4,324 bases of DNA from a virus (Duplodnaviria; Heunggongvirae; Uroviricota; Caudoviricetes). A program made the position numbers and the translations under genes. The notes beneath the pieces were generated by a model that saw nothing but the letters and a program-made list of their open reading frames with translations, was not told the DNA's origin and searched no databases. Numbering within the stretch: position 1 is the stretch's first letter; each line of letters starts with the position of its first letter. The stretch spans positions 1-4,324 of IMG/VR virus record IMGVR_UViG_2534681764_000020; one strand, 5' to 3'. Positions 1-4,324 of this stretch are shown piece by piece.

Positions 1-573
1 ATGTTTTGCGAAGAAAAAGTAGCTCAAATGGCTGCATACCTACTTCTTAAGCGAGGTGGGCGCATGGCATATCTGAAATTGATGAAGTTGCTCTATCTGT
101 CTAACCGCCAGTCGATTTTGAAGCATGGCAGGATGATCGGCGAAGATAGCCTTTACTCTATGAAATTTGGACCAGTCATGTCGAATACGCTGAACTTGAT
201 TCGCGGTAAGGCTGAAGGCATTGGTGACTACTGGTACAACTTGATAGAGACGAACGGGCATAATGTATCGTTGCGTTCAGATCCGAGGGAAATGGATGCA
301 GACGAGGTCTTTGATGAATTGAGTCGTGCAGATATCCGGATTTTAGATGAAATCTATTCTCGGTATGGGCATATGAACCGATTTGATCTCGCAAATATGA
401 CGCATTTAGAAAGCGTTTGTCCAGAGTGGCACGATCCTGGCAATTCTCGTAAGCCTATAGACCTGAAAGAAATGCTGATCAGTGAGGGTAAAAGCGAGGA
501 TGAGGCTAATCGCATAATTGGCAAAATGGAAGAATCTCAGAAACTTAAGGAATTTTCTTTGCAATTATCATGA
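1..573 (+). CDS. Panacea-domain (DUF4065) protein, PanA/SocA/GepA-like putative antitoxin; N-terminus may extend beyond the window
   Basis: The 190-aa ORF contains the segment LKLMKLLYL...GEDSLYSMKFGPVMSNTLNLIRG, which matches my recollection of the conserved Panacea core (LKLQKLLY...W.YGPV). Its stop codon overlaps the start of the next ORF (ATGA at 570-573). The ATG at position 1 coincides with the window edge, so the true start is uncertain. Confidence 0.72.
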   Translation: MFCEEKVAQMAAYLLLKRGGRMAYLKLMKLLYLSNRQSILKHGRMIGEDSLYSMKFGPVMSNTLNLIRGKAEGIGDYWYNLIETNGHNVSLRSDPREMDADEVFDELSRADIRILDEIYSRYGHMNRFDLANMTHLESVCPEWHDPGNSRKPIDLKEMLISEGKSEDEANRIIGKMEESQKLKEFSLQLS

Positions 574-989
574 CGGATTATCAGCCATACAGGAAAGGAA
601 CTGTGCTTGCCCCAACTGGGCCATGCAATCATCTTCATGTGATTTGTAATGATCCTGTTTATTACCCCGTTAACGATTGTTATTGTGTTTTAGTTGTTAA
701 TATTTCTAGTATCAAGGATGGTGTCCCCCACGATCCGTCTTGCGTCTTGAATTCTGGTGATCATCGCTTTATCAAGCATCCAAGTTATGTTGTTTACGCT
801 GAAGCTATAATTTGGCGAGTGGATAACATGGTTAGAAAGCAGCGATCGGGTGAGATTTCTGTTCATGATGATATGCCAGAAGCTACATTCAATAGAATTC
901 TGGACGGTTTTGATATCTCTGATGAAGTTACGCCAAAGAACCTTAAATTTAAAAATAAATATTGCGTATCATCTATTGATGATGAGTAA
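570..989 (+). CDS. hypothetical protein, candidate cognate toxin/effector of the Panacea-domain protein; fold unrecognised
   Basis: 139-aa ORF whose ATG overlaps the upstream stop by 4 bp (ATGA), suggesting translational coupling. There is no nearby Shine-Dalgarno sequence (AAGGAA lies about 18 nt upstream). The N-terminal half is Cys/His-rich (CNHLHVIC, CYC, SC...DH). The DNA looks AT-rich relative to the neighbouring operon. No family recognised from memory. Confidence 0.55.
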   Translation: MTDYQPYRKGTVLAPTGPCNHLHVICNDPVYYPVNDCYCVLVVNISSIKDGVPHDPSCVLNSGDHRFIKHPSYVVYAEAIIWRVDNMVRKQRSGEISVHDDMPEATFNRILDGFDISDEVTPKNLKFKNKYCVSSIDDE

Positions 990-1028: not shown

Positions 1029-1202
1029 ATGGAAGATCAAAAAGCAACCAAGCCACAGGTTAAGTTCGACACAATGAAAGCATTCGCAGGTATGGGTGCT
1101 GCTGTTGAAGTTCTGATGAAGGCTGCTCCTAATGCGTTCACTCACGCTACTGTCTCTGGTAAAGAGCAGCAGGGTAAGCTTCGTCGTCGCAAAGCAGCAT
1201 GA
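1029..1202 (+). CDS. small hypothetical protein (57 aa), not in the supplied ORF track
   Basis: Manual translation gives MEDQKATKPQVKFDTMKAFAGMGAAVEVLMKAAPNAFTHATVSGKEQQGKLRRRKAA, ending at TGA 1200-1202. It has a good RBS and is followed within 20 nt by a strong intrinsic terminator. Codon choice (GGT, GCT, CGT, GTT, TTC, CTG, AAA) resembles highly expressed enterobacterial genes. There is a hydrophobic/amphipathic core and a basic C-terminus. Confidence 0.5.
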   Translation: MEDQKATKPQVKFDTMKAFAGMGAAVEVLMKAAPNAFTHATVSGKEQQGKLRRRKAA

Positions 1203-1221
1203 TCATAGCTGGTGCTTTTTG

Positions 1222-1250
1222 AAAACCCGCCTTTAGGCGGGTTTTTTATT
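1222..1250. terminator. Rho-independent terminator at a convergent gene junction, probably bidirectional
   Basis: Perfect 10-bp inverted repeat AAAACCCGCC / GGCGGGTTTT with a 4-nt loop (TTTA), followed by TTTTTTATTT on the plus strand. It lies immediately 3' of both the plus-strand 57-aa ORF and the minus-strand gene ending at 1250. On the minus strand the trailing U-run is weaker (GGGUUUUC then A-rich). Confidence 0.82.
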
Positions 1251-1531
1251 TAGTGATGTTCTTTGCCCTTCTGTTTGCTTGTTCTGACCTGTTCCCACTC
1301 GATACGTCCTTCTTCTCGTCTTTTGTCTATGTATTCCGCAAGATCCTGAATATTGATGCAACGTTTTGCTTTTTGTGATGTGCCGATGCGATATGTTGGA
1401 ACGGGCAACTTACAAGCGTTTGCTTTTGCTTCTGCCGTGGATGGACTCATACCAAAGTACTTTTGGCTAACTGCTGAGAGTTCAATGTTTGGGGTATTGA
1501 ATTCAGCCATCAGTAAAAACAAGGTGTTCAT
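1250..1531 (-). CDS. PrtN/excisionase-like small DNA-binding protein (putative phage Xis or regulator)
   Basis: The ORF track gives 1250..1558, but that start is GTG with no RBS. The in-frame ATG at 1531 is preceded by GGAG with a 6-nt spacer and gives 93 aa. The segment IELSAVSQKYFGMSPSTAEAKANACKLPVPTYRIGTSQKAKRCINIQDLAEYIDKRREEG resembles PrtN/AlpA-type winged-helix proteins as I recall them. It is the last gene of the operon. Starts at 1543 or 1510 remain possible. Confidence 0.5.
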   Translation of the reverse strand: MNTLFLLMAEFNTPNIELSAVSQKYFGMSPSTAEAKANACKLPVPTYRIGTSQKAKRCINIQDLAEYIDKRREEGRIEWEQVRTSKQKGKEHH

Positions 1532-1567
1532 AATTTTCTCCATCAAAACCGGCTGCACCCGGGAAAA

Positions 1568-2140
1568 TCATAATTCTGTGCTGGTGGCAGGAATTAATTT
1601 CTGCCAGATAGCGGAAACATATTTTGCCTGATGACGGGCATCAGCCCGGGCGTTGTGCCGTTCGCCATCGAAAGGCATGTCCATTTTGGGGTCGAATCCG
1701 ATGGAACGCCCAAGCGTAACGATCGTGCGTACATCGTGGTCATTCCAGTATGCCCACGGGCAGATTTGTCCTGCTCGCTCATAAGCTCCACGTAAAATTA
1801 CGTTGTCGAAGGTGGCCCCGTTACCCCAGACTTTTAAATATTTCGTATTGTCTGCGTGCCGGTTAATGAAATGATTTAGTTCTGAGAGAGCATCGCTGAT
1901 CGACAAAGTATCATCAATGCAGATTGCAGCTCGTGCTTCAGGGCTTTGTTTCAACCACCACAGGATGGTATCGCCGTCAGGTGTAGCTCCTTGCTTCATA
2001 GCACTGTCTAGGCTGACAACCGCATAGAATTCTTGTCCGATGTCTCCGGTTTCGGGGGTGAAGAACACTGCGCCAATAGAAACGATCGGCGCATCCTTAT
2101 TTTTCCCCATCGTCTCAAGGTCGATCATTAAGTTGTTCAT
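1568..2140 (-). CDS. DEDDh-family (DnaQ-like) 3'-5' exonuclease, phage-type
   Basis: Motifs read directly from the translation: Exo I MIDLETMG (D, E), Exo II WGNGATFDN (D), Exo III H-NARADA (H...D). The track ORF (1568..2224) is over-extended: the ATG at 2140 is preceded by AGGAGGTG and overlaps the upstream stop as TGATG, giving 190 aa. Confidence 0.85.
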   Translation of the reverse strand: MNNLMIDLETMGKNKDAPIVSIGAVFFTPETGDIGQEFYAVVSLDSAMKQGATPDGDTILWWLKQSPEARAAICIDDTLSISDALSELNHFINRHADNTKYLKVWGNGATFDNVILRGAYERAGQICPWAYWNDHDVRTIVTLGRSIGFDPKMDMPFDGERHNARADARHQAKYVSAIWQKLIPATSTEL

Positions 2141-4321: not shown

Positions 4322-4324
4322 AAC

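Follow-up and report, generated by a model that had tools for sequence, protein, structure and literature searches.

How is an excisionase-like gene to be understood when its own start is ambiguous and no integrase is seen beside it? The question is raised by a minus-strand gene in a stretch of viral DNA of 4,324 nucleotides, the whole of which is referred to here as the window. A first-pass annotation, made from the sequence alone, had described this gene as PrtN/Xis-like, had listed four in-frame start codons for it, had placed any partner integrase outside the window, and had raised the possibility that a neighbouring Panacea cassette was inserted between xis and int or at a prophage end. 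In the following, we consider the family to which the gene belongs, the element that carries it, its probable function and regulation, its start codon, and the position of the Panacea cassette with respect to the integrase.

Open reading frame (ORF) calling recovers the minus-strand frame at positions 1250-1558 of the window, within which the coding sequence adopted here occupies 1250..1531 (minus strand; ATG 1531, stop codon TAA at 1252-1250) and specifies a 93-aa protein. The product matches the Pfam family PF11112 (PrtN) with E = 6.5e-23, residues 12-83 of the 102-aa form of the protein aligning with positions 1-73 of the 74 positions of the model, as well as the PHROG family 1300, annotated ‘excisionase’, with E = 1.3e-39 (residues 1-84 on model positions 2-86). 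Both matches bear out the description PrtN/Xis-like. The protein thus carries the domain that defines PrtN, and at 93 aa, with essentially one PF11112 domain, it also has the size and domain content of RdfN proteins (~76-100 aa). In the comparison with PrtN, excisionase and AlpA families that had been proposed as a check, PF11112 was the sole Pfam family at E <= 0.1, with no match to models of the lambda Xis, AlpA or HTH_17 type. NCBIfam holds no model for RdfN, the Panacea protein (PanA), the PanA partner or the 57-aa ORF described below, and a sequence search of the PDB with the family profile returned only a chance match to interleukin-5 (E = 1.2). The prokaryotic genome annotation pipeline PGAP annotates the same 282-nt coding sequence in Escherichia coli CUPF06 under the name ‘pyocin activator PrtN family protein’.

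At the level of predicted structure, the AF2 model of the window protein has a pLDDT of 89.8, with values of 55-75 in the last 13 residues, and combines a long helix at the C-terminus with a beta wing and three short helices. When the model was compared by Foldseek with known and predicted structures, the top BFVD matches were small HTH/excisionase proteins, among them a putative Klebsiella phage excisionase (TM 0.87, rmsd 1.9, E = 1.8e-3), and the PDB matches were winged-helix regulators together with a phage P2 DNA-binding protein, 4lhf, which we take to be P2 Cox (probability 0.92, E = 0.08). There was no match at E <= 1e-3 in either the PDB or BFVD, and the resemblance of the modelled fold to HTH/excisionase proteins may serve as a weak consistency check.

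The genomic setting of the gene could be established because the window is 100% identical to positions 4532828-4537151 of the E. coli CUPF06 genome (NZ_CP182174.1), in which the host element is a 42-kb lambdoid prophage inserted in the 5' end of dusA. To the left of the window in CUPF06 lie lexA, dinF, yjbJ, zur, a DUF2713 gene and, on the attL side, a 105-nt dusA 5' pseudogene, which is annotated without a C-terminus and ends 253 bp before the Panacea gene. Some 41 kb away, past the tail, head, lysis and replication genes, come dinI, a gene for a 365-aa tyrosine recombinase (PF00589) and, divergent from this integrase gene at the attR end, an intact dusA, beyond which lie pspG, qorA and dnaB. 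The first-pass annotation had recommended inspection of the flanking genome for int and att sites. Both are present in the identical CUPF06 genome, and the partner integrase does lie outside the window as had been supposed, ~41 kb off at the other prophage end and next to dusA. None of the ten main ORFs of the window itself encodes an integrase domain.

Elements specific to dusA replace the 5' end of the gene with one of their own, and the original comes to form the outer boundary of the insertion (Farrugia et al. 2015; PMC4482086). The CUPF06 layout matches this architecture. The displaced dusA fragment forms an imperfect direct repeat with the 5' end of the intact dusA. The two agree at 89 of 107 positions as far as ATGCTCGA and diverge beyond it, and it is by this sharing between attL and attR that the prophage qualifies as a dusA element in the sense of Farrugia et al. 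2015. Moreover, the attP of phage mEp460 corresponds to the CUPF06 attR arm, the core ATGCTCGA and the CUPF06 attL arm joined in that order. The attL fragment, the dusA at attR and the reconstructed attP concur in defining an element in 5' dusA that provides the gene with a surrogate 5' end and carries its cognate dusA-specific tyrosine integrase apart from the RDF gene. In a heptamer scan, GGGARCC occurred six times in 13.6 kb of mEp460, and five of these occurrences fall in the 235-bp attP, where the int-side arm has three and the cargo-side arm two; the sites lie in the mEp460 attP (L001 3965-4197) and, in CUPF06, at L002 7780-7809 and L003 15600-15640. These heptamers are candidate arm-type sites for Int (or RdfN). 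As for the condition of the CUPF06 prophage, an IS3-family element interrupts an invertase-like recombinase gene, the gene for DNA circularisation has a frameshift and stfP is cut short (L003 17198-19097 and 25626-26953); int and rdfN, like the two att sites, look intact. This copy of the prophage may be defective, and perhaps no longer excises productively.

Functional information on proteins of this type comes from Vibrio. Durand et al. 2021 gave the name RdfN to a 76-aa PF11112 protein of Vibrio dusA elements, and in the Vibrio element excision was lost when rdfN was deleted and came back with pBAD-rdfN, and a mini-element with int alone was excised only when rdfN was supplied (PMC8409611). 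With the IMEVchUSA3 sequences taken from the S1 Dataset of PMC8409611, BLASTP aligns the window protein with this experimentally tested RdfN over 76 aa at 59% identity (E = 9e-33), residue 1 standing against residue 1, and the CUPF06 Int shows 54% identity with the Int of IMEVchUSA3 across 361 aa; because of these identities, both partners are taken to be orthologous to the tested pair. Our own search recovered a 76-aa homologue in V. cholerae that lies 1.9 kb from a dusA 5' fragment beside zur, and the attL-proximal position is therefore shared; the element that carries this homologue also has an MpsA-type Integrase_1 gene. By analogy with the tested pair, from whose 59%-identical RdfN the function of the window allele is transferred, we consider it very likely that the ORF at 1250-1531 is rdfN and that it encodes a recombination directionality factor (RDF; also called excisionase) acting with the dusA-specific tyrosine integrase of a lambdoid, mEp460-like prophage. 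In the V. cholerae element just mentioned (L004 11266-14827), we also observed, two genes past rdfN, a gene for an OLD-family ATPase/TOPRIM protein followed by a UvrD-helicase gene, a pair that looks like a Gabija-type defence system.

The main alternative is that the protein is a PrtN-type transcriptional activator of lysis or late genes after induction, and not, or not only, an excisionase. Its sole Pfam match, PF11112, is named after the pyocin activator, as is the product in PGAP, and the founding member of the family, PrtN, is indeed a transcriptional activator. Many RDFs, such as P2 Cox, TorI and AlpA, double as transcription regulators, and the P2 protein 4lhf is the PDB fold match of best probability. 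However, the window protein and its Int are orthologous to a pair in which RdfN is necessary, and Int plus RdfN sufficient, for excision; the gene occupies the att-proximal end of an early-left operon, the classical position of xis; and the prophage has a Q-like antiterminator of its own for the late genes. Furthermore, Farrugia et al. 2015 (PMC4482086) found a homologue of prtN, to which they could assign no role, in 60 of 94 dusA islands, of which about half are non-prophage elements, and this distribution fits a function in recombination better than one in the control of phage late genes. With integrase, att sites and phage early operon all arguing against a pure PrtN role, we regard activation as an improbable function and retain that of an RDF.

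The early operon to which rdfN belongs also offers an indication of when the gene would be expressed. Directly upstream of rdfN lies a 3'-5' exonuclease gene (1568..2140, minus strand; PF16473, 3e-74), and from this gene to beyond position 4324 every gene lies on the minus strand, with gaps of a few bases or overlaps between neighbours. The run comprises yfdP, yfdQ, yfdR, a PAPS-reductase-like gene, ead/Ea22, a DUF4014 gene, two genes of unknown function, exo and, as the last, rdfN. The run sits below a gene for a CI-like repressor with HTH and Peptidase_S24 domains, and a cro-like gene is divergent. A promoter scan of positions 1-2300 detected fewer sigma-70-like sites than in shuffled sequences and none upstream of rdfN, a result that fits expression of rdfN from the operon. 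Because rdfN is the last gene of a leftward run below an HTH/S24 repressor, it is expected to be silent in the lysogen and to be made after cleavage of the repressor. How rdfN is driven in prophage-like dusA elements was a question left by the Vibrio study (PMC8409611), to which an early-left operon below a gene for an SOS-cleavable repressor of the CI type would be a plausible answer.

From these features the following mechanism can be proposed. The circular phage carries, in order, int, attP with the surrogate dusA 5' end, the variable cargo and rdfN. Integration brings int to attR, beside the rebuilt dusA, and leaves the cargo and rdfN at attL, beside the displaced dusA fragment. In the lysogen rdfN would stay silent until SOS induction and RecA-stimulated cleavage of the repressor allow its expression, whereupon RdfN, as a small winged-helix protein, would bind an att arm and turn Int from integration to attL x attR excision. 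In the prophage int would have to be transcribed from a promoter of its own, co-transcription with rdfN being impossible in this arrangement; in IMEVchUSA3, Pint is constitutive (PMC8409611).

The start of the gene had been left among GTG 1558, ATG 1543, ATG 1531 and ATG 1510, with the remark that a clear GGAG at proper spacing precedes ATG 1531 only. When the frame was recomputed, all four codons were found in frame, as were TTG 1546 and TTG 1522, and the preference for ATG 1531 proved right. Upstream, the frame is closed by TGA at 1570-1568, the stop codon of the exonuclease gene, and the minus-strand junction reads ...ACAGAATTATGA TTTTCCCGG GTG CAG CCG GTT TTG ATG GAG AAA ATT ATG AAC ACC TTG TTT TTA CTG ATG GCT. 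The Shine-Dalgarno (SD) sequence GGAG (1541-1538, minus strand) is separated from ATG 1531 by the 6-nt spacer AAAATT. The duplex with the anti-SD sequence, at -6.4 kcal/mol, is owed entirely to this GGAG, which stands at a working distance from ATG 1531 only; the corresponding energies are -1.1 to -3.8 kcal/mol for GTG 1558, TTG 1546 and ATG 1543, the last of which overlaps the SD sequence itself, and +0.4 kcal/mol for ATG 1510.

Homologues locate the N-terminus at the same place. In an alignment of 26 homologues, which had likewise been suggested for fixing the N-terminus, Serratia, Vibrio and metagenomic proteins with identities of 43-61% open with the same sequence, MNT(L/A/M)(F/Y)LLMAE(F/Y), so that the MNT start is shared down to 43% identity; N-terminal extensions occur in a few records only and are mutually unrelated, and in every homologue below ~90% identity the upstream extension is absent or unrelated. 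E. coli AR434 has a different upstream gene and a spacer that differs in length by 1 nt. Its in-frame codons before the MNT ATG are TGA TGG AGA AAT GAT, with no start codon after the stop, and GGAG is retained. The V. cholerae homologue has TGA TTG AGG ATA ACC in frame upstream, with one TTG between stop and ATG, and its SD sequence, GAGGA, is in the same place as the GGAG of the window. In AR434 and in Vibrio alike, the frame is thus closed by a TGA four codons before the MNT ATG. PF11112 begins at the third residue of the 93-aa form, and in a tblastn search of phages the 30 listed matches, of 101, all begin at residue 1-3 of this form. Finally, in the clone of the complementing Vibrio RdfN the gene begins at ATG AAT ACC and is preceded by a synthetic SD sequence (primer prtNEcoRIf; PMC8409611 supplement).

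Translation could instead begin upstream, at GTG 1558 (102 aa) or ATG 1543 (97 aa), perhaps coupled to the stop codon of the exonuclease gene. The frame is open back to TGA 1570, GTG 1558 follows the exonuclease stop by 9 nt in the same frame, and the RefSeq record of mEp460 annotates the gene (gp25) as a 309-nt long form, whereas PGAP uses the 282-nt form. Close E. coli alleles also leave the extension open, but three of these (L007, L009 and L010) have spacers identical or nearly identical to that of the window, and alleles with a 100% identical spacer are uninformative with respect to the long form. Set against this, neither 1558 nor 1543 has an SD sequence, the extension is not conserved below ~90% identity and in AR434 gives way to a TGA with no start codon behind it, and the Pfam and PHROG profiles, like the functional Vibrio construct, begin at MNT. 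The exonuclease-rdfN junction was also folded as RNA for a structure that might sequester the SD sequence or mediate coupling, and the minimum free energy of -13.1 kcal/mol (z = -0.82) is no better than that of shuffled sequences. An upstream start seems to us very improbable. Because SD spacing, conserved MNT start, upstream stops, profile starts and the Vibrio construct agree, the real start is predicted to be ATG 1531, giving a 93-aa product with the N-terminus MNTLFLLMAE. The spacer between exo and rdfN (1532..1567, minus strand) would then be untranslated, with GTG 1558, TTG 1546 and ATG 1543 in frame and unused. It contains an imperfect palindrome, ACCGGGTGCAGCCGGT (1547-1562, minus strand), between the exonuclease stop and the SD sequence of rdfN; the CCGGGTGCAGCCGGT part of this palindrome is kept even in AR434, with its unrelated upstream gene, and marks where homology begins.

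With identity and start assigned, the absence of an adjoining integrase can be considered. In dusA elements, int and the RDF gene are split by attP (PMC8409611), and the order in the excised or virion form, as in mEp460, is int, attP, cargo and rdfN. Because attP sits between int and rdfN, the two genes come to lie at opposite prophage ends, and in the integrated state rdfN is not expected to have int as a neighbour. All seven E. coli genomes that were inspected show the order dusA fragment, cargo (plus strand) and rdfN (minus strand), with no int between, and an element of V. cholerae likewise has attL, cargo and rdfN in succession. The suggestion that the Panacea cassette had been inserted between xis and int or at a prophage end therefore holds in both its versions, as the order is attL-cargo-rdfN in the prophage and int-attP-cargo-rdfN in the phage. 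Two findings had been named that would speak against it, namely membership of the protein in an unrelated family, or an integrase directly upstream of the window with the cassette ancestral in all relatives, and neither was made. That the incoming Panacea cassette pushed aside or removed an int next to it, leaving an orphan xis in a prophage unable to excise, would agree with a window that lacks int and with a cassette in the position where lambda has int, but is hardly credible given a full-length tyrosine integrase at the other prophage end beside dusA, the absence of int between attL and rdfN in seven of seven inspected genomes with any cargo, and the position of the mEp460 int just across attP from the slot, the same split as in PMC8409611; the distal int and the mEp460 attP layout rule out that the cassette removed the integrase.

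The separation of int from rdfN by attP being the normal state of these elements, the Panacea cassette can be viewed as occupying a slot of its own. The first cargo gene of the window (1..573, plus strand) encodes a Panacea-domain protein resembling the PanA/SocA antitoxins (PF13274, 2.2e-19), and is followed by a partner ORF for a presumed toxin (570..989, plus strand), which matches PHROG 19071 (3.4e-31; residues 6-127 on model positions 5-129) and no Pfam or NCBIfam family. The start of the partner is ambiguous: ATG 570, which overlaps the PanA stop codon (ATGA), would give 139 aa, and PGAP has a 128-aa form from 603. The PHROG 19071 alignment favours the long form, which would be translationally coupled. 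The third cargo gene is a conserved 57-aa ORF (1029..1202, plus strand), convergent with rdfN, that matches PHROG 2741 (8.4e-36), is annotated in mEp460 (as gp24), O157:H7 and A39, and has its own AGGAG and a Lys/Arg-rich C-terminus. Together with rdfN it is also found on plasmids, at 155677-156221 of a 204-kb APEC plasmid (NZ_CP126947.1) and at four other plasmid places, which points to a phage-plasmid or to a fragment of a prophage located elsewhere than in dusA. Between the 57-aa ORF and rdfN lies a GC-rich hairpin (1221..1246) with an 11-bp stem, 6 GC pairs and a plus-strand T-run, and on its minus-strand side only TTTTC follows. The hairpin is a plus-strand terminator and probably also a weaker minus-strand terminator.

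The content of the slot between attL and rdfN varies. Homology between CUPF06 and mEp460 breaks off just beyond the GGGAACC repeats in the attP arm, at a point ~190 bp to the left of window position 1, and resumes at 1016. Among 5426 complete E. coli genomes, rdfN is present in ~741, and at least four types of cargo were found in the slot, counted as places that cover >= 80% of a query spanning cargo and rdfN. Type i, that of the window, combines the 190-aa PanA, the 139-aa partner and the 57-aa ORF (193 genomes); type ii, as in O157:H7, A39 and mEp460, a 177-aa protein of unknown function and the 57-aa ORF (358 genomes); type iii, a different, 157-aa Panacea protein and a 182-aa partner, a pair unrelated to that of the window (79 genomes); and type iv, a 189-aa unknown and a YafO-family toxin (4 genomes, plus a diverged variant in strain 442/2). 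The 57-aa ORF is common to types i and ii only, and the inspected cargoes are all transcribed towards rdfN. As the cassette is contiguous with rdfN in only 193 of the ~741 E. coli genomes that carry the gene, it is not ancestral. The Panacea pair is exchangeable cargo at a prophage end, in a slot between the attP arm and rdfN, and the alternative cargoes are mostly toxin-antitoxin-like.

Exchange seems to reach into rdfN itself. The C-termini of RdfN proteins diverge after EWExVRT (homologue alignment A1), and the 3' tail of the gene (1250-1280, minus strand), comprising its last ~10 codons, varies between alleles (KQKGKEHH vs KQKNI, and others). DNA matches of relatives with cargo types iii and iv begin at 1279/1281, which places their predicted exchange boundary inside these codons, and the last ~10 codons of rdfN appear to have been exchanged together with the adjoining cargo. 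From gene orientation alone one might further suppose that the slot is a cargo hot spot for toxin-antitoxin or defence modules, whose convergent transcription in the lysogen, running antisense into rdfN, damps leaky excisionase expression. We consider this doubtful; if true, it would tie cargo expression to prophage stability.

In sum, the gene is a member of the already known RdfN family, and the essentials are already contained in the literature and in PGAP annotation, so the significance of the present analysis is limited and extends little beyond annotation. It does fix the start codon at ATG 1531, on which the PGAP annotations are right and the RefSeq mEp460 record has the long form, and it explains the absence of an adjoining integrase. 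By analogy with the Vibrio system, the label ‘pyocin activator PrtN family protein’ in ~741 E. coli genomes would be better read as RDF of dusA integrases, and the variable slot between attL and rdfN may repay a search for new toxin-antitoxin or defence cargo.

Among known systems, mEp460 has a gp25 ‘excisionase’ (NC_019716) that is 95.7% identical to the window protein and has the same setting, with exo upstream, the 57-aa ORF downstream and the same int and attP; mEp460 differs in that its slot holds a 177-aa hypothetical gene where the window has the Panacea pair, and in the annotation of a 309-nt gene form. The RdfN of IMEVchUSA3 shares PF11112, the N-terminus MNT.FLLMAE and 59% identity over the whole of its 76 aa, and its partner integrase is 54% identical. 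Compared with it, the window protein has a C-terminal helix and tail that are 17 aa longer, and its gene belongs to a tailed lambdoid prophage, whereas IMEVchUSA3 is a mobilisable SGI1-like island of V. cholerae. The two genes also differ in setting and orientation: the window rdfN ends an early-left operon below a CI/S24 repressor gene, and the Vibrio rdfN has an AcaCD-responsive promoter and, unlike the window gene, is transcribed away from attL. With PrtN, the pyocin activator of Pseudomonas aeruginosa and a small DNA-binding protein induced after DNA damage, the window protein has PF11112 in common. PrtN, however, activates pyocin promoters with P-box repeats, acts under a PrtR-type repressor and has no integrase partner, whereas the window gene has a dusA integrase for a partner and is accompanied by att sites, and RdfN has been described as only ‘distantly related’ to PrtN (PMC8409611). 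Lambda Xis, P2 Cox and AlpA/TorI, for their part, resemble the window protein as small basic winged-helix/HTH proteins whose genes stand at the att-proximal end of the early-left operon; there is no sequence-family match to them, and the resemblance of the modelled fold is weak. From these classical excisionases the window gene is set apart by its position in the prophage, where it does not lie next to int and attP comes between the two.
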